64,000 nucleotides of DNA, taken from NCBI GenBank assembly GCA_046583455.1, contig JAYGCG010000094.1:2121-66120 (forward strand). Direction: 5' to 3'. The DNA comes from Dehalococcoidia bacterium. Its GTDB lineage: Bacteria; Chloroflexota; Dehalococcoidia; Lucifugimonadales; Lucifugimonadaceae. Each line of letters opens with the position of its first letter. The first letter of the stretch is position 1. Below the pieces are notes generated by a model that was given only the letters and a program-made list of their open reading frames with translations, was not told the DNA's origin and searched no databases. Below, in pieces: positions 25,629 through 64,000 of this stretch. A program made the position numbers and the translations under genes.

Positions 25629-25919
25629 AATAAACGGTTAACTGGCACGCACATTATGTAAACGCTCAGTTATATCCTGGAGTACCGCTTCTGTAACGGT
25701 CCAAAACGGTCACAGATAGCGGTATTTCATGGATGTTTACGCTGTCCCTTCAGTGGTACGCTTAACGTGACGAAATTCGTCGGGCGGCGCTCCACGCACT
25801 GTCGAGCGCCTGACCTGAGCAAGCAACACACGGTCCGGAGCGCGGATTCGACCGCTGGTTCCGGACCTTCTCGCGTTACGGGAATCGCATCCTGGACCGG
25901 GCGCGTTTATAGAGGCAAA

Positions 25920-52669: not shown

Positions 52670-52683
52670 AACCGCACGCGGTT
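52670..52683 (-). terminator. Rho-independent terminator of the paralog C dehydrogenase gene
   Basis: On the minus strand, AACCGCGTGCGGTT (5-bp stem) overlaps the TAA stop and is followed by TTTATTTTGGGG. Confidence 0.5.
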
Positions 52684-53665
52684 AGATGCCGGCGCGGGTC
52701 TTGCCAAGTACTTCCGGGTTGATCACGACATCCGGCATCTCTCCATTCAGTACCCGTACGACCTCGCGGGCCGTTCGTTCCTCAAGCTCTATGGTCGATG
52801 CCTGTGAGAAGAACGCCGTATGCGGTGTAATGATGACGTTTTCGAATGCGTAAAGAGGATGATCGTCCGGCGGGGCTGTCTCCTCCAGCACGTCCAATCC
52901 CGCTCCCCCGATCTCGTCCCTGCCCAACGCCTCCACGAGCGCCGACTCATCAATCAAAGGGCCACGGGCGGCGTTAATTAAGAAGGCGTCATTCTTCATC
53001 AATCGGAACTCGGCGGCGCCCATCATCCCCGTTGTTTCCGGGAGTAGCGGGGCATGGAGCGTTACGAAGTCGGAGGCCTCCAACATCGAATCCATCGAGG
53101 TCATTTGCACGCCTTCTGGAGCGTCTGATTGCCCAATAAATGGATCGTGCGCCAGGACCGTCATGCCGAAGACGCGTGCGCGTTCGGCGACAGCGCGACC
53201 GATCCGGCCCATCCCGGCGATGCCCATCGTCTTATCTCGCAGCCGGTGCATCGTATCTGTAAGTGACACGGACCCCCAGCCGGATGATTTGACCATTGAG
53301 CTGTGCTTGACGATCTTGCGGTTGAACGCAAGTACCATCGCCATCACATGATCGGCCACCTCGTCGATGCAGTAATCGGGGATGTTGGTCACAACGATCC
53401 CAAGCTCAGTGCAGGCGGCGATATCCAGGTTGTCCACCCCGATGCCATAGCGTGACGCCACCTTGCAGTTTGGCGCGTTCTGTAGCACCGATGCCGGAAC
53501 CTGAGCGAAGCAGAACATGATGGCGTCCACATCAGCGGCGAGCCTGGCCAGAGTCTCCACAGACGAGTCAGGCGCCACTATCGGCTCGATGCCCGCGGCC
53601 TTCAGGATCGCCGTCTCGGCGTCTATGTTCGGCCAAGTGTAGTCGGTAATCAGGACTTTGCTCAA
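52682..53665 (-). CDS. D-isomer-specific 2-hydroxyacid dehydrogenase, paralog C
   Basis: 'MGIAGMGRIGRAVAERA', 'NAARG', 'TPHTAF'. Confidence 0.8.
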   Translation of the reverse strand: MSKVLITDYTWPNIDAETAILKAAGIEPIVAPDSSVETLARLAADVDAIMFCFAQVPASVLQNAPNCKVASRYGIGVDNLDIAACTELGIVVTNIPDYCIDEVADHVMAMVLAFNRKIVKHSSMVKSSGWGSVSLTDTMHRLRDKTMGIAGMGRIGRAVAERARVFGMTVLAHDPFIGQSDAPEGVQMTSMDSMLEASDFVTLHAPLLPETTGMMGAAEFRLMKNDAFLINAARGPLIDESALVEALGRDEIGGAGLDVLEETAPPDDHPLYAFENVIITPHTAFFSQASTIELEERTAREVVRVLNGEMPDVVINPEVLGKTRAGI

Positions 53666-53784: not shown

Positions 53785-54666
53785 TCAATCAGCGATGCTT
53801 ACCTCGGCCGGAATGATGCCCAGGTTTTCGCAGGTCTGAGCGACTACGGCGGCGCGGTTGAGCGTGTAGAAATGCAGCTCGTCCACGCCTTCCAGCATCA
53901 GCCGATGGGTGAACTCCGTTGCCACACTGACCGCCACGCTCAGACGGGCCTGCGTCCCGTTCCCGGCCCTGCCGAATCGTGAAACAAGCCAGTCCGGCAC
54001 GCTCGCTCCGCAGCGTTTGGCGAACCGGCTCGTGCTCACGATGTCCACGATGGGCATGACGCCCGGGACAATCGGTGCCGTGATACCGGCGGCACGGGCG
54101 CGGTCGATAAAACGAAAGTACATGTCGGGCTCAAAGAAAAATTGCGTAATTGCACGCGTGGCGCCGGCGTCTAACTTCCGCTTCAGATTGTCCAGATCCG
54201 CCTCAGCGCTGACAGCCTCTGGATGAGGCTCGGGGTAGGCGGCAACCGTGATCTCGAAATCGGCCACGCGTTTAAGCCCGGCAATCAGATCGGACGCGTA
54301 GTGATAGCCGTCGGGATGTGGCTCATACCGGTCCGTGCCCGCCGGTGGGTCGCCCCTCAGGGCCACGATGTGCCGAATCCCGGCATCCCAGTAGTCACGC
54401 GCCACCTCGTCAACCTCGTCGCGCGACGCGCCGACGCAGGTCAGATGTGCGGCGGGAGGAATGTCACTCTCCGCCAGCATTCTCCGGACAATTTGATGTG
54501 TACGCTCACGAGTGCTCCCGCCGGCTCCGTAAGTTACCGACGTGAAGCGAGGTCCGTACGGCTCAAGACGCTTAAAAGATCGCCAGAGAGTGCGTGCTGC
54601 GTGGGGCGTGCGTGGGGGAAAGAATTCGAACGACACCAACGGAAGCCTGCGGGTTGTAGAGGTCAA
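53785..54666 (-). CDS. metF: 5,10-methylenetetrahydrofolate reductase
   Basis: 'SFEFFPP', 'TYGAGGSTRERT', 'ALRGDPP', 'TQFFFE' MTHFR motifs. Confidence 0.9.
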   Translation of the reverse strand: MTSTTRRLPLVSFEFFPPRTPHAARTLWRSFKRLEPYGPRFTSVTYGAGGSTRERTHQIVRRMLAESDIPPAAHLTCVGASRDEVDEVARDYWDAGIRHIVALRGDPPAGTDRYEPHPDGYHYASDLIAGLKRVADFEITVAAYPEPHPEAVSAEADLDNLKRKLDAGATRAITQFFFEPDMYFRFIDRARAAGITAPIVPGVMPIVDIVSTSRFAKRCGASVPDWLVSRFGRAGNGTQARLSVAVSVATEFTHRLMLEGVDELHFYTLNRAAVVAQTCENLGIIPAEVSIAD

Positions 54667-55643
54667 CTGGCCGCCTCCACTGAATCGGGCTCCGACCTGG
54701 AATCTGACGTAGCTGATCCCTCGTGTGACGCCAGCCAGACGTTCACCGTCAAAGGATCGCCTTTCAGCGTTCTCGTCAACTCAGATCCCAACCCGGCGAC
54801 CTCGCACCATGCCGAGACCTCTTCGTCAGCAAGACCTAGTCTGTGGTGCGCGTGTTCCTCGATGAGGATGTTTTGCGTGTGAGGGGCGAAGTCGATCACC
54901 ACGAGGCGTCCGCCCGGGCGCAATACTCGGGACGCCTCTGCGATGGCGGAAGCAGGGTCCTCTGCGTAGTGCAACACCAGGTGGAACACGACGGCGTCCT
55001 GGGAGGCGTCGTCAAATGGCAGTTCGTACATGTCACCGTGACGGACCTGGCAATGCTCAAGGCCTGGTTTACCCAGATTCACGCGCGCAACGGCCAACAT
55101 TTCGTGAGACAGATCGATGCCGACACCATTACGGATGTCTGGGGCCATCACCTCAAGGATTCGTCCGGTGCCGGTTCCGATGTCCAAAAGATCTGAGACG
55201 TCACCGCCCCCGAGTAGATCGCGAACACACGCTTCCACTTCCGCCTCCGGGACATACATGGAACGTATCTGGTCCCAGCGAGGAGCGTTCTCACGGAAGT
55301 AGGACGCGGCCGCATCAGCGCGTGCTTCCTTGATCTCTTCCAATCTCTCCTGGTCACGCAGGTAAACAGGATCGTTTTCGGGAATCAGGTCTACGATGGC
55401 CTTACCCAGGAGCGGTCCATTGGGGCCGCTGGAAATCCTGTAAAACGCCCACTGACCCTCTCGGAATCGGCTCAAGAGTCCGGCCTCAACGAGCAACTTC
55501 AAATGACGTGATACACGCGGCTGGCTCTGTCGCAGGATCTGCGTCAGCTCGGTCACCGTGAGCTCGGCATGGGCGCACAGGGTCAACAGGCGGAGCCGTG
55601 TCGGCTCTCCCGCTGCCCTCAGTCCCGCCAGAAGCTGTTCCAT
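54663..55643 (-). CDS. ArsR-family wHTH regulator fused to a class I SAM-methyltransferase-like domain (SahR-like architecture)
   Basis: N-terminal 'EPTRLRLLTLC....LTVTELTQIL.QSQPRVSRHLKLL' ArsR HTH. C-terminal 'VSDLLDIGTGTGRILE' SAM-binding motif I, 'DAVVFHLVLHY', 'LRPGGRLVV'. 4-nt overlap with metF. Confidence 0.8.
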   Translation of the reverse strand: MEQLLAGLRAAGEPTRLRLLTLCAHAELTVTELTQILRQSQPRVSRHLKLLVEAGLLSRFREGQWAFYRISSGPNGPLLGKAIVDLIPENDPVYLRDQERLEEIKEARADAAASYFRENAPRWDQIRSMYVPEAEVEACVRDLLGGGDVSDLLDIGTGTGRILEVMAPDIRNGVGIDLSHEMLAVARVNLGKPGLEHCQVRHGDMYELPFDDASQDAVVFHLVLHYAEDPASAIAEASRVLRPGGRLVVIDFAPHTQNILIEEHAHHRLGLADEEVSAWCEVAGLGSELTRTLKGDPLTVNVWLASHEGSATSDSRSEPDSVEAAS

Positions 55644-55697: not shown

Positions 55698-55729
55698 TGC
55701 ATATAAACATTTCCTTATATGTTGGTCAA
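55698..55729 (-). promoter_or_regulatory. Promoter/operator P1 (upstream of the ArsR-MTase-metF unit)
   Basis: Minus strand reads TTGACC, 17 nt, TTATAT. The spacer and -10 carry the palindrome TGCATATAAA-CATTTC-CTTATATGTT (7/10 arm match). One of three near-identical sites. Confidence 0.65.
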
Positions 55730-55779
55730 GCTGAATCGAAAACACGTTTGCAACCGGTTCGTCTCGCAGGGAAACGGGA

Positions 55780-57411
55780 TCAGGCTGACGCCAGGTCTTG
55801 CTTCATGGGCTTGAACTGACAGCCCTCCACGAACAGGTCAAAGAAGTCAGGCATTGTCTCAAGCTCAACGTGCTCAATGTCGCGTGTGAGCAGTTCGATT
55901 TCCTTGCGCTTGACCCGGGACGTGAGCATGATTGTCGCGCCTTCCAGCGCGGCGTTCCCGACCTGCGAAACGCGATCCGTCGAGACGTTGGCGATGAAGC
56001 CAATGTCGCGGGCGTTGTCAACGTCGATGTAGTTGGCAAAACCACCGGCGAGGTACATGCGCGTCAATTTCTCCGGTGAAGTCCCGTACTCACGGAGGAC
56101 GATCCACTGACCGCAGTAGTTGGCGGCCTTCGCCTGTGCAAGCGCGCTCATGTCAGCGCGTGAGATCGTGATGCCACGTTCGGGCACAACGTCAAACTCC
56201 GACGCGCCGTCTTTCAGTACGCCGAGTTCGTTCATGGTTTCCGTTCTGACGAGCTCCGCCAGCAGGTCCACCAACCCCGAGCCGCAGATCCCTTCCGGCA
56301 CTGCGTCGCCGATCGTGTCGAACTCCACACCGCCGTTGACGATGCGGACGGACTCGATCGCGCCGTCGTAGCCGGGCATGCCAAATTTGACCTCGGCGCC
56401 CTCGAACGCCGGCCCGGCGGGACAGGACGCGGCAAGCATGCGGTAACGGTTTCCGACGATTACTTCTGTGTTGGTGCCGATGTCGACAAGTGCAACGACG
56501 TCTTCAGATTCATCCATGCCGATGGCGAGTATGTCTGCCGCTATGTCGCCGCCGATGTGGCTTCCGATGAGTGGAGCACCGTAAACGTTGGCGCCCGGGA
56601 ATATGCGCAGGTCCAAGTCGCGTGCCTTCACGTTCAACGCCGTCGTCTCACGCTTGCCCGCCCTGAACTCCTCTTCCACGAGTGACCGGTAAGGTTTCTC
56701 GCCAATCGACTGCACGTCAAGTCCGAAGAACAGCTCCCGCATCGTGGAGTTGCCCACAATGACGGCCTCGTATATGTGAGGGCGACGAATTCTCAGGTGC
56801 CGGACCATGTCCCCGATCTCGAAATTGATCGACGACATGATCACTTGACCAAGCTCACCCTGGTACTCGCCGCTGTCGTACGTGATGCGGCGCATCGTGT
56901 CGCTGCCGCCAAACCTTTGCGGGTTTTCGAACGACCCTGTATGGAGAATCTCGCCCGATTCCACGTCGACAAGATTCAGCACAACGGTCGTGGTGCCGAC
57001 GTCGATCGCCAGACCGTAGATGTGGCCGCGGTATCGGTCGATCACCTCGCCGTCGAACACCACGTCGTCTCCGACGCGTGTGGTCAACGGGTCTAACGTC
57101 ACATTGCGCGACACCGTACGGGTCATGATCCGTGGCTGCCGGCGCAGTACGGCGAACTCGATATCGGCGTCCGGGTCTTTGACCACCGCCTGACAGGCAA
57201 GTCGGTAGTTCTCGTTCAGCAGAAACTGCTCGGACTCGGTCGGATCGTTGAGCGCCTCGGCCCCGCGTTTCACCTCTACGATGCATTCGTGGCACTCGCC
57301 GGTCCGCCCGCACGAGGTAGGCACGCGTACGTTCAGTGCGTCTGCGTAGTCGAAGATGCTCTGATCGGCGACAAGTTCAAGAATCTGGTCGCCGTGATGT
57401 AGGGGAGACAT
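55780..57411 (-). CDS. Corrinoid reductive activator, RACo/RamA-like (N-terminal 2Fe-2S ferredoxin + ASKHA/DUF4445 ATPase)
   Basis: 'CGRTGECHECIV....LACQ' plant-type ferredoxin motif. ASKHA 'GLAIDVGTTTVV' and 'VDIGTNTE' phosphate motifs. 543 aa. Confidence 0.8.
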   Translation of the reverse strand: MSPLHHGDQILELVADQSIFDYADALNVRVPTSCGRTGECHECIVEVKRGAEALNDPTESEQFLLNENYRLACQAVVKDPDADIEFAVLRRQPRIMTRTVSRNVTLDPLTTRVGDDVVFDGEVIDRYRGHIYGLAIDVGTTTVVLNLVDVESGEILHTGSFENPQRFGGSDTMRRITYDSGEYQGELGQVIMSSINFEIGDMVRHLRIRRPHIYEAVIVGNSTMRELFFGLDVQSIGEKPYRSLVEEEFRAGKRETTALNVKARDLDLRIFPGANVYGAPLIGSHIGGDIAADILAIGMDESEDVVALVDIGTNTEVIVGNRYRMLAASCPAGPAFEGAEVKFGMPGYDGAIESVRIVNGGVEFDTIGDAVPEGICGSGLVDLLAELVRTETMNELGVLKDGASEFDVVPERGITISRADMSALAQAKAANYCGQWIVLREYGTSPEKLTRMYLAGGFANYIDVDNARDIGFIANVSTDRVSQVGNAALEGATIMLTSRVKRKEIELLTRDIEHVELETMPDFFDLFVEGCQFKPMKQDLASA

Positions 57412-57501
57412 TGGTTAGTCAGTTTCTCGCTGAGGTGTGTTGAGTAAACCGCTGTGGGCGTTCTTTGAATGCTTGGGATTTCAAGAGCCGGTGGAAGAGG
57501 C

Positions 57502-57768
57502 CTAGGTTTCCCACGCCGACCGGTAATCGATCTCATCACTGCCGGTGCAGATCGCCTTTTCGCCGACGACTTTGAAGAACTGATTTCGGCAAGGGAACTT
57601 CGCCGTGCACCGTGACTTTGCGTCCTTGTACGGGCAACGGGTCTGGCCGGGAGTGGCGGCGGTCTCAGAGATATCGGAGTAGATATCCATGAGCCGTGAC
57701 ATGCTCGTCCGCAATCGATCCGAGTCCACCGATTTCTTCGGAGGGAGATTGTCTTTTGATTCCGCCAT
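57502..57768 (-). CDS. Small Cys-rich protein, 88 aa, hypothetical
   Basis: Sits between the corrinoid protein and activator genes on the same strand. Four Cys in 'CPYKDAKSRCTAKFPCRNQFFKVVGEKAIC'. Confidence 0.45.
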   Translation of the reverse strand: MAESKDNLPPKKSVDSDRLRTSMSRLMDIYSDISETAATPGQTRCPYKDAKSRCTAKFPCRNQFFKVVGEKAICTGSDEIDYRSAWET

Positions 57769-57834
57769 GTTGACCTCCTCCCTGGATCAGGGTTGGCCAA
57801 TGTCTTGCCGTCGATTATCTATGTGGGAGCGCTA

Positions 57835-58581
57835 TTAGGCGCTTGCAGCCCTGACCATAGCGATCAACTCTTTAGCCTTTTCCACACACGTGATGGCGTT
57901 GTCCGCATATCCGTCTGCGCCCATATCGTCCGCAAATTCTTGCGTTACAGGAGCGCCGCCGGTCATGAACTTGTACTCGTCGCGTAGTCCCATGTCTTCA
58001 AATTCGATGATCGTGCGGCCCATGTTCGGCATCGTAGTCGTGAGCAGGGCGGACATCATCACAAGGTCTGCGCCGTTCTCTTCAGCGGCCTCCATGAACT
58101 CGTCTGGCTTCGTGTCTACGCCGAGATCGTGCACAACGAATCCAGCCCCCCGCATCATCATGATGCAGAGGTTCTTGCCGATGTCGTGAAGGTCGCCCTT
58201 TACGGTCCCGAAAACGGCGGTGCCGATCGGCTCCACACCTGACGCCGAAAGGATCGGGTCGATGTGCGCCATTCCGGCCTTCATAGCCCGTGCGGCGATG
58301 AGTACTTCAGGGACGAAGATGATGTTGTCTCGGAACTTGACGCCAACGACGGCCATCCCCGAGATCAGTCCTTCGTCGAGGACATCGTTGGCCTCACGGC
58401 CTTCGCCAAGCGCTCTTTGCGTAAGCTCGTCAACGGCGTGATGATCGCCGGTAATGAGGCTGTACGCCATCTCCTGCATGAGTGCGTCGCCCGCTACGAT
58501 CTGCTCGAGGATCATTTCACGCTCGTCTTCACGCGTGACGTACTCGAACTCTTTAGCGAGGCCTTCATGAACGATTGGCAA
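57835..58581 (-). CDS. Corrinoid (cobalamin-binding) methyl-carrier protein, cap + B12-binding domains
   Basis: 'GDLHDIGKN' DxHxxG motif, 'SALLTTT', 'GGAP'. Confidence 0.88.
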   Translation of the reverse strand: MPIVHEGLAKEFEYVTREDEREMILEQIVAGDALMQEMAYSLITGDHHAVDELTQRALGEGREANDVLDEGLISGMAVVGVKFRDNIIFVPEVLIAARAMKAGMAHIDPILSASGVEPIGTAVFGTVKGDLHDIGKNLCIMMMRGAGFVVHDLGVDTKPDEFMEAAEENGADLVMMSALLTTTMPNMGRTIIEFEDMGLRDEYKFMTGGAPVTQEFADDMGADGYADNAITCVEKAKELIAMVRAASA

Positions 58582-58650
58582 GTTTGAATCTCCGATTGAA
58601 CCAGGTTAGACGCCATGTACGTAATAAGGCGGCTTAGATCAAGCGATATA

Positions 58651-58682
58651 GATACATAAACATATCGTTATATATCTGTCAA
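58651..58682 (-). promoter_or_regulatory. Promoter/operator P2 (upstream of the corrinoid protein unit)
   Basis: Minus strand reads TTGACA, 17 nt, TTATGT. Palindrome GATACATAAA-CATATC-GTTATATATC (8/10 arm match). Confidence 0.65.
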
Positions 58683-58740
58683 TGCAGCGTTACCGCGCAT
58701 TAGACCGGGTACTGGCACCCGGTCTGCCGATAGTTAGGAG

Positions 58741-59775
58741 TTAGAGGCGCTCGGCGCTCCAGTCTTTGACCGCGTCCGGGATGGCCAGAAGGTTCTGGAG
58801 TTTCGTCTGGAGAGGGATGGCGCACTCCGGAGCGATCATCTGCACCCCCGCCTCAAGGCAGGCGTACACCTCTTTACGGACCTCATCAGGTCCGCGTGAG
58901 TAGAGGGTTTCAGGATTGTTGATGTTGCCCACAAGGGCGATCCCGCCATCGACTGCGTCCATCGCCGCCTGCGGGTCGTTTCTGGAGTCGAAGTGGAAGG
59001 CCGCCATGCCTGTTTGTGCGATGTACGGCATGCGGTCCAGCGTCTGGCCGCAGATGTGGAGGATGAGTGGTGCGTTGATTCGCTCCGCCATCTCCGTGTG
59101 GATATCTTGCAAGAAGCGTTTGTAGTACTCGCCGGACACAAGGTCTCCGGTGGCGTGGTCGGGGACGCAGATGGCGTCCGCACCGGCGGCGATCTGGGCA
59201 TCTGCGAACAGGTACGTCGCCACCTTGAGCTTGTCCAGGATTCGCATCGTCATGTCGGGGTCGTCGATGGTCATCAGGAGGAAGGTCTCGACGCCGAACA
59301 CGTGGTAGGCGAGCGTCCACGGTCCCATGGACTTGCCGATGATTGCGACCTCGTCACCGAACTGCTTTTTCAATATCTCGATAGCGCCCGTGATGCTCTT
59401 CATGTCACGGTGCTCAAGGAAGTCGGCCGGGATCTTGACGTCGGCTTCACCCTTCCATATCGGGTTGGCCATTCGGACGGTCGGCCAGTTGTCCTTCTGC
59501 TCCCACTGCATCTCGCAGCCGAGCGCAGAGGACTCCTGGATGATGGTGAAGTAGGGCTGTATGGAGTCGAACCCGAGTTCCGTGTAACCGGTCGCCGCCA
59601 GCTGTGCGTTCAACTCTGGATCCCGGCAGGCGTCCGGAAACGGCGCGTCCACCATATCCATCAGCTCGACCGTTGCGACGTTGGTCGGGTTGGATACAGG
59701 GGTTCGGTCCACCGGCAGACCGGCAAGCGCGTTCATCACGCGTTCCTTGGACGTCATGGTGTCTGCATATGGCAT
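58741..59775 (-). CDS. Uroporphyrinogen-decarboxylase-family methyltransferase (MtaA/CmuA/O-demethylase MT-like)
   Basis: 344 aa, 'TSKERVMNALAGLPVDRTPV' URO-D-like N-terminus, 'ICVPDHATGDLVS', 'LHICG' motif. Confidence 0.7.
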   Translation of the reverse strand: MPYADTMTSKERVMNALAGLPVDRTPVSNPTNVATVELMDMVDAPFPDACRDPELNAQLAATGYTELGFDSIQPYFTIIQESSALGCEMQWEQKDNWPTVRMANPIWKGEADVKIPADFLEHRDMKSITGAIEILKKQFGDEVAIIGKSMGPWTLAYHVFGVETFLLMTIDDPDMTMRILDKLKVATYLFADAQIAAGADAICVPDHATGDLVSGEYYKRFLQDIHTEMAERINAPLILHICGQTLDRMPYIAQTGMAAFHFDSRNDPQAAMDAVDGGIALVGNINNPETLYSRGPDEVRKEVYACLEAGVQMIAPECAIPLQTKLQNLLAIPDAVKDWSAERL

Positions 59776-59812
59776 TGGAGTGGCCTCGATCCCCTAGTTT
59801 AAGTTCCGGGGT

Positions 59813-60475
59813 TTAAGTGCTGGCGAACCCAAGCGTGGATGTCGTCATCTGGCCGCGTAGAGCGTCGGCCTCCATCGCGTCTTCGACGGCGCTGATGTTT
59901 CGGGAGTAGGGCAGTATCAGACGAGCCAGACCGTCGTGGCGCTGGCCGCAACTGAACGTGATGGTCGAGTCGTCCAGCTTGTCCATCTCTCCATAACGCA
60001 CGAACCCGGCGATTATGGCTCGAAGGCGTAGCGCTGGGTTTTTCGCCTCGCCGGTCGTCGAGATACGGTACACGTAGCGGTTACCGTCCTGTTCGCCCGT
60101 CATATCGATCGTCAGATTGCTCTTGGAGTCTTTGATCTGGAGCTTTTCCGGCCGATCGCGTTCTGCCGTGCGTTCGATGGCAGCGGTGGTCAAAAACTTG
60201 AGCGGACGGGTGTGGACGTGTCCGCAAGGGAAGCGCAGCCGATTCCAGGCATCTGCGATCTCCATGCCGCCGAGCTTGACCAGCCGGTCCACGATATCTC
60301 GTATGCGGTCATCCACGCCAGGTCGTCGGCTGAAGGTCCACACGGTGGAAATGCCTTCGCGTTCGTACAGCCCGACGCTGATGTCGTGGAAGTTTGGATC
60401 CATCGGCACCAGCTCCACGCAGTCGCCGTAGCGGGTGACTACTTCGCGTGCGCTGAGTAGTTCTAGCGTTGTCAT
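59813..60475 (-). CDS. Hypothetical protein, 220 aa, internal two-fold repeat with FxCGxxH motifs
   Basis: 'RDIVDRLVKLGGMEIAD...RFPCGHVH' (about residues 59-88) parallels 'RAIIAGFVRYGEMDKLD...TFSCGQRH' (about residues 152-180). Embedded in the methyltransferase operon. Confidence 0.55.
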   Translation of the reverse strand: MTTLELLSAREVVTRYGDCVELVPMDPNFHDISVGLYEREGISTVWTFSRRPGVDDRIRDIVDRLVKLGGMEIADAWNRLRFPCGHVHTRPLKFLTTAAIERTAERDRPEKLQIKDSKSNLTIDMTGEQDGNRYVYRISTTGEAKNPALRLRAIIAGFVRYGEMDKLDDSTITFSCGQRHDGLARLILPYSRNISAVEDAMEADALRGQMTTSTLGFAST

Positions 60476-60510
60476 CTGGAGATGGAACCTCTGATCGTGT
60501 TACCCCGTGT

Positions 60511-61404
60511 TTAGCCTTTAACGGCTTCTACAAGGGATTTTATGTGGTCTGGCCCGGTACCGCAGCACCCGCCAAGTATGTTGATACCAAGTCCATGCAG
60601 CGTCTTGAAGTGTTCAGCCATGAACTCAGGCGTCTCAGGATAAACGATCTCCATATTGATGATCGCAGGAATACCGGCGTTTGAGTGCACAAGCATGAAG
60701 CCGTCATCCACGGCGCGCATGAGCTGTGCGATTTCAATCATTCGCTCGATGCCGTTGCCGCAGTTGGTGCCGACTACGTCTGCCCCTGCCTCTCGCAGCT
60801 TTTTTACGCCGACTTCGGGTGTGATGCCCATCATCGTGAAAAATCCGCGGGGTCCAGGGTCGTACACCATCGTGGACATCACGACGAGGTCTGTGTTGTC
60901 CTTGGCGGCCTTCACGGCCAGGGTGGCTTCTTCGATAGCGGTCATGGTCTCTATGACGACGCCGTCAGCGCCGCCCTCGGCGAGCGCTGTGATCTGCTCT
61001 ACAAAGGCGTCGTACATCTCCGTCTCGGACACCGGCCCAAGCGGCTCAAGGAACTCTCCCGTCGGGCCAACAGAACCAATCACGAAGGCGCCGGGAGGGG
61101 CGACCGAGCGTGCGTGTTCCGCGGCAAGACGGTTGAATTCAGACACCTTGTCTTCATGACCGTACTTTTTGGTCATGAACTTCGTCCCACCGAACGAGTT
61201 GGTAAGGACCATCTCTGAACCGGCGTCGAAGTAACGCTTTGCCATCTCTTTGATGGTGTCCGGGTGACTGACGTTGAACTCTTCAGGGCAACCGCCCGGC
61301 TCCAGTCCATGTTCCTGGAGATACGAGCCTGTGGCGCCGTCAGAGATGATCGTGTCGCCCCGTTCGAGGCGTTCGAGAAGTGTTGGGGCAGATGTTGAAG
61401 TCAT
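60511..61404 (-). CDS. Homocysteine S-methyltransferase domain protein (MetH Hcy-binding module-like)
   Basis: 'ISDGATGSYL', 'TNSFG', 'GTNCGNG', 'GGCCGTGPDHI' (zinc Cys triad). Confidence 0.85.
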   Translation of the reverse strand: MTSTSAPTLLERLERGDTIISDGATGSYLQEHGLEPGGCPEEFNVSHPDTIKEMAKRYFDAGSEMVLTNSFGGTKFMTKKYGHEDKVSEFNRLAAEHARSVAPPGAFVIGSVGPTGEFLEPLGPVSETEMYDAFVEQITALAEGGADGVVIETMTAIEEATLAVKAAKDNTDLVVMSTMVYDPGPRGFFTMMGITPEVGVKKLREAGADVVGTNCGNGIERMIEIAQLMRAVDDGFMLVHSNAGIPAIINMEIVYPETPEFMAEHFKTLHGLGINILGGCCGTGPDHIKSLVEAVKG

Positions 61405-61510
61405 TGGGTTCCAATTTGCCGCTGGCGTCGCCCGAACAATTTCGGGTACATGATCAGCGCGTCTTTAGCTACAAGAAGTTTGGTCGAGTGGGCGCCTGAT
61501 TCAAGAGTGC

Positions 61511-61852
61511 TTAGCTCTTGATCCAGCTATCTATCGCCCCCGGCGATGGGTCTCGTTCGCCGGCGTTCGCAAGGTCCCGAATCCGGGCCACGAAATCGTC
61601 AGGAAAACCGTCGTTGAATCGCTGAGCTATAGCCGCGGCGGCTTCCTTTGGCGGTGCATCCACTTCGCCGTAATCCTTGAGTTCCCATGAGTCCAGGTAG
61701 TCGTCGGTACCGGCGCTGCCGTCAAACATGGCGATCGCGTCGGCGGCTTCCTGAAATCGGGCGTCGAGTGGATGTGAAATAGTTCCCCCCTCGTCGCTTG
61801 CCTGAACCGTGACGGGGATTTCTTTCCAGTACATGAGGCGTACGAGCGCCAA
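61511..61852 (-). CDS. Small acidic protein, 'virulence factor' (PF13769-like) family
   Basis: 'MYWKEIPVTVQA....RFQEAADAIAM..G.AGTDDYLDSWE' resembles the 'YWRDIPAQV...GTDDYL..W' signature recalled for this family. Confidence 0.55.
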   Translation of the reverse strand: MALVRLMYWKEIPVTVQASDEGGTISHPLDARFQEAADAIAMFDGSAGTDDYLDSWELKDYGEVDAPPKEAAAAIAQRFNDGFPDDFVARIRDLANAGERDPSPGAIDSWIKS

Positions 61853-61886
61853 TGGAGTTCCTCCAACCGGGTGAGGGTCTAAATGA

Positions 61887-62927
61887 TTAATCCAGGCGTC
61901 CGTCGCGGAACGCTTTAATGTAGTTCATGCAGTAGTCGTCGTTGCCTTTAAGCATGTCCATCGCGAGCTCTACAGGCTCGGAGTCGAGGTCCAGATCCAG
62001 CACCTTCTGGATAGAGGTCGGGATCGGGTCAATAATCCCGCTGTCCAGCCCGCTCTCGATCGCCAGGTGCAGGAAAACGTCATTGACGAGCCTGCGTTTC
62101 GGCAGCCCGAACGACACGTTACTGACGCCGCCCGTGATGTGGACTTCGGGACCGTACTGCTCCCTGATAGTCGAGACGGCGTCCAGGTAGTCGTTCCCGT
62201 ACTGAGAAGCGACGCCGATCGGAAAGGCGAGGCAATCGATATACACGTCGCCGAGCGGTATGCCGGCATCCTGGATGTGCACCATGAGTTGGTCGATGTT
62301 CTCCACCCGCTCCTCGGCGTTGTCCGGCATTCCGGACTCTCCCGCGGCCGTGACGATCACGCGCCCATTGTTTTCCGTCACAAGTTTGATCGTGTCGAGG
62401 CGTTCCAGCGCGACCGAGTTGATCATCGGCCTGCCGGCAGCGCTGGTGTAGGCAGCCAGACCGGTCTTGATGATCTCCGGGTTTGACGAGTCGATACTTG
62501 ACGGGATGGTGGAAACCGCCTCAACAGTTCTGACCAGCCACTCCATCGACTCGTTCTGGATGTCGATATAGGGGCTGACCTCGTCGACGTTCAGATCCAG
62601 GAACGAGGCACCGGCCTTCGTCTGCCGCCGCACCTCTCGATGGACGTATGCGGTACCGATGGCCTGTTCTTCGGCATCGCCGTTTACGCCCTTCCAGACG
62701 GCGATCATGAAGTGTTTGACCTGGTTCAGTCCGTAGGGCTGCTGCTTTTTGAAATGCTCCGGGATGGAGAGAAACAGGTCCTTCCCGTTTTCGTCCTTGA
62801 ACGGCACGCCCTCGGTCCCGTCATCAAGCTTTCGGATACGTCGTCCGTTGAGCAGGACGATACGCGTCGTGTGAATGTTTTCGCCGATCGTTACAAAGTC
62901 GTCAGCGGATTTCAGATGGCGAGGCAC
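61887..62927 (-). CDS. Pterin-binding methyltransferase (methyl-THF:corrinoid methyltransferase, MetH pterin module / AcsE-like)
   Basis: 'IGENIHTTR', 'FLDLNVDE', 'GGVSNVSFGLPKRRLVNDVFLHLAIESGLDSGIIDP'. GTG start with GGAGAG 5 nt upstream. Confidence 0.85.
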   Translation of the reverse strand: MPRHLKSADDFVTIGENIHTTRIVLLNGRRIRKLDDGTEGVPFKDENGKDLFLSIPEHFKKQQPYGLNQVKHFMIAVWKGVNGDAEEQAIGTAYVHREVRRQTKAGASFLDLNVDEVSPYIDIQNESMEWLVRTVEAVSTIPSSIDSSNPEIIKTGLAAYTSAAGRPMINSVALERLDTIKLVTENNGRVIVTAAGESGMPDNAEERVENIDQLMVHIQDAGIPLGDVYIDCLAFPIGVASQYGNDYLDAVSTIREQYGPEVHITGGVSNVSFGLPKRRLVNDVFLHLAIESGLDSGIIDPIPTSIQKVLDLDLDSEPVELAMDMLKGNDDYCMNYIKAFRDGRLD

Positions 62928-62973
62928 AATAACTCTCCGGGATTGAAACGACCTCTGGAGGCCTTGATGTAAA

Positions 62974-63005
62974 GATATATAAACATTTCTTTATATATCA
63001 GTCAA
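62974..63005 (-). promoter_or_regulatory. Promoter/operator P3 (upstream of the pterin-MT operon; divergent from the 63161 ORF)
   Basis: Minus strand reads TTGACT, 17 nt, TTATAT. Perfect 10-bp inverted repeat GATATATAAA-CATTTC-TTTATATATC at 62974-62999. Confidence 0.7.
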
Positions 63006-63160: not shown

Positions 63161-64000
63161 ATTGACCTCACTTCCTCATACAACCACCGTCGGACTGACG
63201 GATCGCCGTGGGATGAAGGAAGCGCGACCGCGGTTGCCGGATTACCGGGCGGCAACAACACCTTCTGGGGCATTCCATTTTCCGGAAAAGATGCATCGGA
63301 ACCATCGATCATAGTTGCGGGGGCGAGTGGGTCGACCAGCAAGGTGGAGATTCCGATCAACGCACCAGATAACACCGGCATTTCCGGTGCTGGCGCTCAG
63401 TACGTAGTTTTCCAACATGTGTGTGACGCTCGGGCGCTCGACGACGACGGGAACGTGCGGCAACCGTATCCGCTTCAGGCAGGACGCCCGCCTGTTGCGC
63501 TCAATCCCGGCGAACTCCTTGCCGAATACACGCTGGTATACGCAGATGGATCGGAGCACACCGTCCCGGTGCGCCGTCAGTTTGAGATCAACAGCCCGCG
63601 TACACGAGGCCAGAGCACATACGCGGCCAAGGACCATCTTGAGCCGGTAGCGCTGGACTTCCGTGGCCCGTCGCCCAAAAACCTGTGGGGGCGGATGCAA
63701 CTCAACGTCAACGTCGGATCGCTGGACTCCCTGACGAACGGCGAAGGCACATGGCTCTTGTTCGCGCTCCCAAACCCGCACCCGGATCGTCAGATATCGG
63801 GAATACGCGTGACGCCCACGGGCAGGGCATCGATCGGTATCGGGGCGATCACACTTTTCCACGGGAACAACCATCCGCTCCGCCACAGCAAGCTTGAGAG
63901 CGTGGCCGTGGAGCTGCCTGGTGGAGAAGGTTCCGATCCAGCATCGCTGGAGGTCGATATCGACCTCGGGACCGTTGCGCGTTCGTACGCCGTGCCTGCT
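63161..64000 (+). CDS. Hypothetical protein, 3' end outside window (not in the supplied ORF track)
   Basis: The frame is open from 63128 to base 64000 (291 codons, no stop). It reads '..GGNNTFWGIPFSGKDASEPSIIVAG..LAEYTLVYADGSEHTVPVRRQFEINSP..TWLLFALPNPHPDRQISGIRVTPTG..'. Start unclear (TTG 63161, GTG 63344 or GTG 63419). Confidence 0.5.
   Translation, partial: MDLTSSYNHRRTDGSPWDEGSATAVAGLPGGNNTFWGIPFSGKDASEPSIIVAGASGSTSKVEIPINAPDNTGISGAGAQYVVFQHVCDARALDDDGNVRQPYPLQAGRPPVALNPGELLAEYTLVYADGSEHTVPVRRQFEINSPRTRGQSTYAAKDHLEPVALDFRGPSPKNLWGRMQLNVNVGSLDSLTNGEGTWLLFALPNPHPDRQISGIRVTPTGRASIGIGAITLFHGNNHPLRHSKLESVAVELPGGEGSDPASLEVDIDLGTVARSYAVPA

Follow-up and report, generated by a model that had tools for sequence, protein, structure and literature searches.

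The 64,000-nt stretch considered here, referred to below as the window, comes from an uncultured marine Dehalococcoidia bacterium of the phylum Chloroflexota (GTDB family Lucifugimonadaceae; assembly GCA_046583455.1, contig JAYGCG010000094.1, positions 2,121 to 66,120), and carries a cluster of genes for corrinoid-dependent methyl transfer, all of them on the minus strand. The cluster is divided into three units, each headed by a short and nearly identical site in which promoter-like hexamers are combined with a 20-bp near-palindrome, and it includes the gene for a regulator in which an ArsR-type winged helix-turn-helix (wHTH) is fused to a domain resembling S-adenosylmethionine (SAM) methyltransferases. 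This article describes the genes and sites of the cluster (coordinates are positions in the window), their relatives in other genomes and metagenomes, and the evidence by which the sites can be read as probable operators of a SahR-type repressor responding to S-adenosylhomocysteine (SAH).

Genes and Sites of the Cluster

The first unit, which follows site 3, begins with the gene for a pterin-binding methyltransferase (61887..62927) that is assigned to Pfam PF00809 and by NCBIfam to the methyltetrahydrofolate:corrinoid methyltransferases, and continues with genes for a PF13769 protein, a homocysteine S-methyltransferase (60511..61404; Pfam PF02574, with NCBIfam matches to BHMT and the MetH N-terminal region), an orphan protein of 220 aa, and an MtaA-like methyltransferase. 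The second unit, after site 2, encodes a corrinoid (B12-binding) protein (57835..58581; Pfam PF02607 and PF02310; MtgC-like in NCBIfam), an 88-aa open reading frame (ORF), and a 543-aa reductive activase of corrinoid proteins of the RACo/RamA type (55780..57411), in which a 2Fe-2S ferredoxin domain is joined to an ASKHA ATPase (PF00111, PF17651, PF14574). The third unit, after site 1, encodes the ArsR-methyltransferase regulator (54663..55643) and MetF, the methylenetetrahydrofolate reductase (53785..54666; Pfam PF02219; NCBIfam TIGR00676 above cutoff), whose gene overlaps that of the regulator by 4 nt, and possibly also a SerA/PGDH-like D-2-hydroxyacid dehydrogenase (52682..53665; Pfam PF02826 and PF00389), which begins after a gap of 119 nt. 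The only terminator-like site found between or after the units by a terminator scan lies 3' of this dehydrogenase gene, and a weak promoter-like match lies within the 119-nt gap; the dehydrogenase gene may be the last of the regulator unit or may have a promoter of its own. The pterin, corrinoid, and homocysteine proteins are encoded by three separate genes, each aligning to the matching region of MetH (TIGR02082; region 375-626 for the pterin protein and 621-847 for the corrinoid protein), and correspond to its pterin, cobalamin, and homocysteine modules, or MtgD, MtgC, and MtgE, respectively. Together with the RamA-like activase, they are predicted to constitute a split cobalamin-dependent methionine synthase.

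The three sites were recognized in a preliminary description of the window as 29-mers at 55701-55729, 58654-58682, and 62977-63005, and re-reading of the sequence returned exactly these coordinates; a recount position by position also gave the same 23 invariant positions of 29, the variable ones being 2, 11, 14, 21, 23, and 24. Read on the minus strand, each of the three consists, as had been proposed, of TTGAC(C/A/T), 17 nt, and TTAT(A/G)T, which can equally be written as TTGACn, 3 nt, and then the 20-bp near-palindrome ATATAAnGAnATGTTTATAT (the box) lying over spacer and -10 hexamer. Their placement upstream of the regulator, corrinoid protein, and pterin methyltransferase genes was likewise borne out. 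Site 1 (55701..55729, minus strand), the putative and autoregulatory promoter-operator of the regulator unit, has TTGACC at 55729-55724 and the box ATATAAGGAAATGTTTATAT at 55720-55701, which ends 57 nt before the regulator ATG (55643). Site 2 (58654..58682, minus strand), the putative promoter-operator of the second unit, has TTGACA at 58682-58677 and the box ATATAACGATATGTTTATGT at 58673-58654, ending 72 nt before the start codon of the corrinoid protein gene (58581), and site 3 (62977..63005, minus strand), that of the first unit, has TTGACT at 63005-63000 and the box ATATAAAGAAATGTTTATAT at 62996-62977, ending 49 nt before the start codon of the pterin methyltransferase gene (62927). At site 3, the palindrome is perfect, as first described, with 10-nt arms in the arrangement GATATATAAA-CATTTC-TTTATATATC (62974-62999). 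Nine of the 10 symmetric position pairs of the consensus box are complementary, and the symmetry is broken by positions 8 and 13, both of which are G. Positions 8, 19, and 20 were left unconstrained in the pattern used for searching and are still 87-99% conserved, as G8, A/G19, and T20.

Within the window, these sites stand alone. A degenerate 27-nt pattern built from them matched only the three sites themselves when up to three mismatches were allowed and matched nothing in 100 dinucleotide-preserving shuffles, and a weight matrix trained on 70 related sites (reporting threshold 8 bits) gave sites 1, 2, and 3 scores of 38.7, 37.8, and 41.0 bits, respectively, no other position in the 64 kb exceeding 9.1 bits. 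A scan for half-sites returned one further candidate, ATGTAAACGCTCAGTTATAT at 25656-25675 on the plus strand, between an RraA-like gene and typA, which matches in its outer half-sites and has no TTGAC. It was rejected as a probable chance occurrence because the conserved GAnATG is missing from its centre (CGCTCA) and its matrix score falls below the 8-bit threshold.

Putative Promoter Organization

Each site had been described as a strong sigma70-type promoter, and of this description the near-consensus -35 hexamer and the 17-nt spacer stand, whereas the word strong overstates the case. The -35 hexamers match the consensus at five or six of six positions, and the -10 hexamer, TTATAT or, at site 2, TTATGT, matches at three of six. 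None of the three sites was recognized as a promoter by a scan with the sigma-70 consensus (TTGACA, 16-18 nt, TATAAT, with A at -10 position 2 and T at position 6), because their -10 hexamers lack the A at position 2. All three carry TG at the extended -10 position (T12-G13 of the box), which would give a reason for the conservation of G13 at the cost of symmetry; the other asymmetric base, G8, is not accounted for in this way. The best reading appears to be an extended -10 promoter overlapped by an operator, with a predicted transcription start site at each of the three. An operator that covers the spacer and the -10 hexamer fits repression, and the earlier proposal of repression agrees with the literature, in which SahR is described as a negative regulator of SAM-cycle genes that responds to SAH (bioRxiv 10.1101/803072; PMC8877191); repression would be the expected sign of control in the present organism as well.

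Conservation Among Dehalococcoidia

Four comparison contigs of Dehalococcoidia carry regulators that are 83% (L007), 77% (L010), 70% (L012), and 69% (L011) identical to that of the window, and in these relatives the box is kept at orthologous positions while the intergenic flanks have diverged. The box of site 1 is conserved in L007, L011, and L012. Site 2, identical in L007 and L010, is unchanged over some 35 nt in three lineages, and site 3 stands out from its diverged surroundings in L007 and L010 as a block of about 33 nt. L011 retains a box that has no -35 hexamer at the usual offset and is followed by a TATAAT, an arrangement that argues for selection on the box itself and not just on a promoter. 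The same comparison bears on the 859-aa divergent ORF, starting near 63161, which site 3 had been noted to face as well and which is not a conserved neighbour: other, co-directional genes occupy this place in the relatives, an MTHFR-DUF5981 gene in L007 (L007:1000-2652) and a gene of the AP-endonuclease family in L010. Since the upstream neighbour varies among lineages, site 3 is best assigned to the pterin methyltransferase gene and not to the divergent ORF.

The Regulator and Its Relatives

The regulator, a protein of 326 aa, has the architecture described for SahR, as the preliminary description had it: an ArsR wHTH (residues ~8-72; HTH_5, residues 14-58) is followed by a class I SAM-methyltransferase-like domain (residues ~150-260; Methyltransf_11/25/31, residues 152-263). 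NCBIfam HTH_metalloreg is matched above cutoff, and the GxGxG motif of the methyltransferase-like domain reads DIGTGTG. Comparison with the PDB returned no full-length SahR structure, the matches being to separate methyltransferase and ArsR domains. The sequence recurs unchanged, and in the same gene order, on marine metagenome contigs, and its closest named relatives come from metagenome-assembled genomes (MAGs) that carry the label Dehalococcoidia or Chloroflexota. It shares 60-63% identity, over at least 93% of the length, with the leading proteins of sahR-metF-metH operons found on long metagenome contigs (L013, L015, and L017), and it is 58-61% identical to proteins of MAGs named as Alphaproteobacteria/Rhodospirillaceae (L025, L036, L045, and L081) and 51% identical to those of two others so named (L057 and L062). 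Orthologues that bear the box in Alphaproteobacteria, Gammaproteobacteria, and Nitrospira span 40-63% identity. The window regulator and the sahR-metF-metH homologues have the same recognition helix, SQPRVSRHLKLL, which is nearly identical in the gammaproteobacterial and Nitrospira homologues, and the helix SQPRVSRHLK(L/V)(L/M) hardly varies between the window protein and those of Alphaproteobacteria and Nitrospira. Among the named matches, full-length ArsR-methyltransferase proteins of 60-65% identity also occur in Candidatus Sulfotelmatobacter (Acidobacteriota), Candidatus Cybelea, and Alphaproteobacteria; from the first two it appears that the SahR-like family extends far beyond the groups of Proteobacteria from which it has been described.

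Distribution of the Box

The three sahR-metF-metH operons each have a box upstream of sahR, ATATAAGGATATGTTTATAT in L013, ATATAAGAATATATTTATAT in L015, and ACATAAAGATATGTTTATAT in L017. A -35-like hexamer stands at the same 3-nt offset from the box in L015 and L017, with four to five of six matches to TTGACA, and a weaker one, TTAATT (three of six), accompanies the box of L013.

A strict pattern, TTGAC-N4-ATATAANNANATGTTTAT, was searched in 185,579 genomes, one per GTDB species, and matched 73 stretches, where about one would be expected by chance if base composition were uniform, and far fewer if the DNA is rich in G+C. Thirteen Chloroflexota MAGs account for 35 of these sites, located upstream of the pterin methyltransferase gene (10), the corrinoid protein gene (12), the regulator gene (9), and one other SAM methyltransferase gene, with the remaining three cut by contig ends; in other phyla, a further 12 sites, from Alphaproteobacteria, Arenicellales, Acidiferrobacteraceae, and Nitrospira, each immediately precede an ArsR-methyltransferase gene. 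In G+C-rich genomes, the strict matches thus fall almost exclusively before SahR-like genes or, in Chloroflexota, before the three target genes of the window. Among the matches listed from a metagenome scan, G+C-rich contigs show the same three targets, a box is also found upstream of a homocysteine methyltransferase gene, and a further box, ATATAAAGATATATTTATGT, precedes by 53 nt a Rhizobium metK gene, whose product is 99% identical to MetK of Rhizobium leguminosarum/ruizarguesonis.

Two matches lie before other methyltransferase genes. The sole extra strict target in the Chloroflexota genomes scanned (L050:5800-5826, minus strand, MAG B102T1L10) has its box 59 nt upstream of the gene for a 369-aa protein that combines a SAM-methyltransferase domain with an Rv2258c-like wHTH (HTH_65), possibly an extra member of the regulon or a second regulator. 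On an Arenicellales chromosome (OZ244198.1; L022:3676-3702, plus strand), a box identical to that of site 3 lies 43 nt upstream of a gene for a SAM-dependent carboxyl methyltransferase (Methyltransf_7), which suggests that SahR regulons can include SAH-producing methyltransferases.

The pattern also occurs in three other settings. In Lactobacillus (L019, L023, L030, and about 20 other loci), a ZnuA-type gene follows it at a distance of about 200 nt; in Treponema (L072, L079, and L083) and Nitrospira (L060, L086, L091, and L090), it lies 8-39 nt upstream of short ArsR genes and, in Nitrospira, also upstream of an ArsP permease gene. The Treponema site is a perfect palindrome about a shifted symmetry axis, AAACATATAA|TTATATGTTT, and the Lactobacillus and Treponema palindromes share this departure from the axis of the box, being of the form AAACATAT...ATATGTTT. 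These sites of Lactobacillus, Treponema, and Nitrospira probably serve other regulators as operators composed of similar words. The Lactobacillus, Gardnerella, and Treponema matches were judged to be unrelated operators in A+T-rich genomes and are not counted as support.

Probable Identity of the Operator and Proposed Control

The core SahR regulon defined in Proteobacteria comprises sahR, ahcY, metF, metK, metH, and metH2, its motif is a 20-bp palindrome, and metK is among the SahR targets of Rhizobiales (Leyn et al., 2014; PMC4239095, including Table S2). Given the orthologous operons, the shared recognition helix, the outcome of the genome scan, the box before Rhizobium metK, and the published regulon, it is very likely that the box is the SahR operator and that the regulator of the window is a SahR orthologue. 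The proposal that the three operators are recognized by the cluster's own SahR-like protein is supported by the comparisons of box and regulator across phyla, and binding is predicted on that basis. With high probability, then, a SahR-type repressor acts at all three sites, each of them an operator embedded in a promoter of a split methionine-synthase cluster, and the arrangement is a known SahR circuit in a phylum for which the SahR papers examined do not describe it.

Under this proposal, a dimer of the regulator (54663-55643) would bind the box through its winged helix-turn-helix and block access of RNA polymerase to the promoter. Accumulating SAH would bind the methyltransferase-like domain, the repressor would leave the DNA, and the three units would be expressed. 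The first would supply the pterin and homocysteine methyltransferases of the split cobalamin-dependent methionine synthase, together with the MtaA-like methyltransferase and two further proteins; the second, the corrinoid carrier and its ATP-dependent reductive activase; and the third, the regulator itself and MetF, the maker of methyl-tetrahydrofolate (methyl-THF). The outcome would be a faster remethylation of homocysteine and recycling of SAH. What the sequences show is the sites, their conservation, their association across phyla with SahR orthologues, and, by homology, the functions of the genes; DNA binding by the window regulator, SAH as its effector, repression as the sign of control, and the transcription start sites are inferred.

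A number of observations weigh against this proposal, in addition to the rejection of all three sites by the sigma-70 scan. The regulon is not uniform among relatives: the box before the regulator gene is degenerate in L010 (L010:9871-10000), though its TTGACC is kept, and the corrinoid gene of L012 is not preceded by a box (L012:2303-2506). Because the strict pattern also matches before Lactobacillus znuA and short Treponema ArsR genes, it does not single out SahR where genomes are A+T-rich. Of the SahR targets, ahcY and metK are the most conserved, and both are absent from the 64-kb window, where a tblastn search with an approximate E. coli MetK query and motif searches found nothing; neither has a site in the 13 Chloroflexota MAGs with the strict pattern, which weaker sites would escape. 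Finally, identity with the published SahR motif rests on Rhizobium metK and the sahR-metF-metH operons and not on a printed consensus.

Alternative Explanations

The boxes might be operators of another transcription factor encoded elsewhere in the genome, such as a short ArsR/SmtB paralogue, with the ArsR-methyltransferase protein serving some other role. The occurrence of the pattern 8-39 nt before short ArsR genes (98-139 aa) of Nitrospira and Treponema, and before the Nitrospira ArsP permease gene, speaks for such a binder and indicates that related wHTH proteins can use similar words. However, the box lies directly before the ArsR-methyltransferase gene in every G+C-rich lineage sampled (21 sites, plus L013, L015, and L017), and it is the recognition helix of these proteins that is essentially invariant, whereas the helices of the short ArsR proteins differ (SQPLVSRNL, TQPAISQQL) and the Treponema sites, at least, have a shifted axis of symmetry. 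A different ArsR paralogue is accordingly very unlikely, because box and regulator gene are so tightly coupled across phyla. It is also conceivable that the sites are simply three copies of a good promoter, the palindrome being a by-product of A+T-rich sequence with no repressor involved, and the combination of TTGACn, 17-nt spacing, TG, and TTATAT does resemble a complete extended -10 promoter, in which G8 and G13 break the palindrome and G13 suits the TG. Yet the spacer is conserved base for base across phyla, which is abnormal for promoter spacers, nine of the 10 symmetric pairs of the consensus are complementary, L011 retains the box with its -35 missing from the usual offset and a TATAAT lying downstream, and the box goes together with SahR genes and with targets assigned to SahR in the literature, Rhizobium metK among them; a promoter without a repressor is therefore judged highly improbable.

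An RNA hairpin in the 5' leader, acting as an attenuator, stability element, or riboswitch-like signal, would account for the palindromes in place of a DNA operator. Each palindrome can form an A-U-rich hairpin, and the leader of site 3 has a z-score of -2.4 relative to shuffled sequences, but those of sites 1 and 2 reach only -1.1 and -0.5, respectively, and no Rfam family was found in the region, a permissive threshold yielding one meaningless match of 15.8 bits. Moreover, the arms are conserved as sequence and not merely in their pairing, most of the box would be untranscribed if the -35/-10 reading is right, and the distance from box to start codon ranges from 0 to 113 nt among loci while that to the -35-like hexamer is fixed. 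A hairpin in RNA consequently has hardly any probability as the explanation, and the SahR-type operator remains the preferred one.

Comparison With Known Systems

The system of the window and SahR of Proteobacteria share an ArsR wHTH with a SAM-methyltransferase-like sensor, a probable 20-bp palindromic operator, putative autoregulation, the sahR-metF pair, predicted control of methionine synthase genes (including the split metH2), and the box sequence found before sahR-metF-metH operons and Rhizobium metK, and the overlap of operator and promoter here fits the negative control reported there. The differences lie in the host and the targets. In the two SahR papers examined, SahR is described from Alpha-, Gamma-, and Deltaproteobacteria only, whereas the present host is a marine member of the Dehalococcoidia; and, compared with the SahR regulon, the methionine synthase targets are fully split, accompanied by a RACo/RamA activase, and co-transcribed with an MtaA-family methyltransferase and orphan proteins. 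SamR of Xanthomonadales is likewise a SahR-like ArsR-methyltransferase protein that adjoins methionine synthase genes and has a palindromic operator. It is, however, only about 30% identical to SahR and is associated with a 24-bp palindrome with an ATC-N10-GAT core (PMC4239095), whereas the window protein shares 58-63% identity with proteins of the SahR type and is associated with a 20-bp ATATAA...TTATAT box.

The enzymes find their closest parallel in the split cobalamin-dependent methionine synthase of Phaeobacter and Ruegeria, which consists of MtgC, MtgD, and MtgE with RamA and DUF1638 (Price et al., 2018, PMC5764234; Mausz et al., 2025, PMC12478193); split enzymes of this kind are described in recent work as widespread and highly expressed in marine bacteria. 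Both systems have separate pterin-, corrinoid-, and homocysteine-binding proteins and a ferredoxin-ASKHA (RamA-like) activase. In the window, by contrast, all parts are clustered and lie under putative SahR boxes, and there is neither a DUF1638 protein (PF07796 matched none of the cluster proteins) nor an MttB-family MtgB in the cluster, their place being taken by the MtaA/CmuA-family methyltransferase, the PF13769 protein, and the 220-aa orphan. A keyword search of the text of PMC5764234 and PMC12478193 returned no mention of a transcriptional regulator of the split system. MetJ and the SAH and SAM riboswitches similarly provide feedback of SAM-cycle metabolites on methionine and SAM-cycle genes, but the protein family and the signal are unrelated to those proposed here, and no riboswitch was detected in the region with Rfam.

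Accessory Genes of the Cluster

The MtaA/CmuA-family protein (58741..59775) has the URO-D fold (Pfam PF01208), matches NCBIfam MtaA/CmuA above cutoff, and is assigned as a methyltransferase of the methylcobalamin:thiol type; its closest solved structure is that of MtaA, the methylcobalamin:coenzyme M methyltransferase (4ay7; E = 1.9e-51). It retains H-x-C (LHICG) and a later Cys (APECA), which presumably resemble the zinc site of MtaA. The host in which this gene is co-transcribed with a split methionine synthase is a non-methanogen.

Between the homocysteine methyltransferase and MtaA-like genes sits the 220-aa orphan (59813..60475), which is conserved in the operon and for which neither Pfam (E <= 0.01) nor NCBIfam gave a match. 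It has 713 homologues; among the 120 listed, most are nameless and the only name given is 'hypothetical protein', and those bearing a taxon label come from Chloroflexi, Chloroflexota, or Dehalococcoidia MAGs. An AlphaFold2 model (predicted local distance difference test score 81.7) found no fold match in the PDB and suggests a beta-sheet-plus-helix unit that is duplicated within the protein. Each half contains a conserved C-G-x-x-H (C84/H88 and C176/H180), and C19 is invariant; these conserved Cys/His motifs suggest a metal site.

The 113-aa protein with a PF13769 ('Virulence_fact') domain (61511..61852) is encoded at the same position in L001-L010. The conserved 88-aa ORF (57502..57768), which lies between the corrinoid protein and RACo activase genes and also has no Pfam match at E <= 0.01, is called at the same place in L001-L010 and L012; it is 85-99 aa long in related loci and 66 aa in L009. 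An overlapping ORF of 155 aa at 57333-57800 looks spurious. The SerA-like dehydrogenase gene is found 3' of the regulator gene (and of metF, where present) in every related locus, L001-L012, and in L011 (L011:3106-4101), which lacks metF, it follows the regulator gene directly. This arrangement suggests a conserved link of serine or one-carbon supply to the SahR regulon.

Biological Significance

One wider possibility, and a rather unlikely one, is that the cluster forms a corrinoid methyl-transfer hub of deep-ocean Dehalococcoidia, in which the SahR boxes gate more than methionine synthase. If so, the MtaA/MtsA-type thiol methyltransferase and the Cys/His-rich 220-aa protein would harvest methyl groups from an environmental compound, for example a methyl-thioether, the shared corrinoid protein would hand them on to homocysteine or THF, and harvesting would be switched on by the cellular level of SAH. 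Such a hub would parallel the dual-function MtgBCD of marine Proteobacteria, though with another substrate module and a defined regulator. A further possibility, suggested by the near-identity of regulator, operator, and promoter layout across four phyla, is that the regulatory cassette as a whole was transferred horizontally.

The reading of the sites as SahR operators leaves the mechanism of SahR as currently thought unchanged. What it would do is extend a documented circuit, with its regulator, operator, and promoter layout, from Proteobacteria to Chloroflexota and, incidentally, to Nitrospira and uncultured Gammaproteobacteria. The boxes would also provide a first regulatory handle on the split methionine synthase and would point to a functional link between B12-dependent methyl transfer and three uncharacterized genes, those of the PF13769 protein, the 88-aa ORF, and the 220-aa orphan, and the 20-bp box could serve as a marker of methionine and SAM-cycle genes in uncultured genomes.

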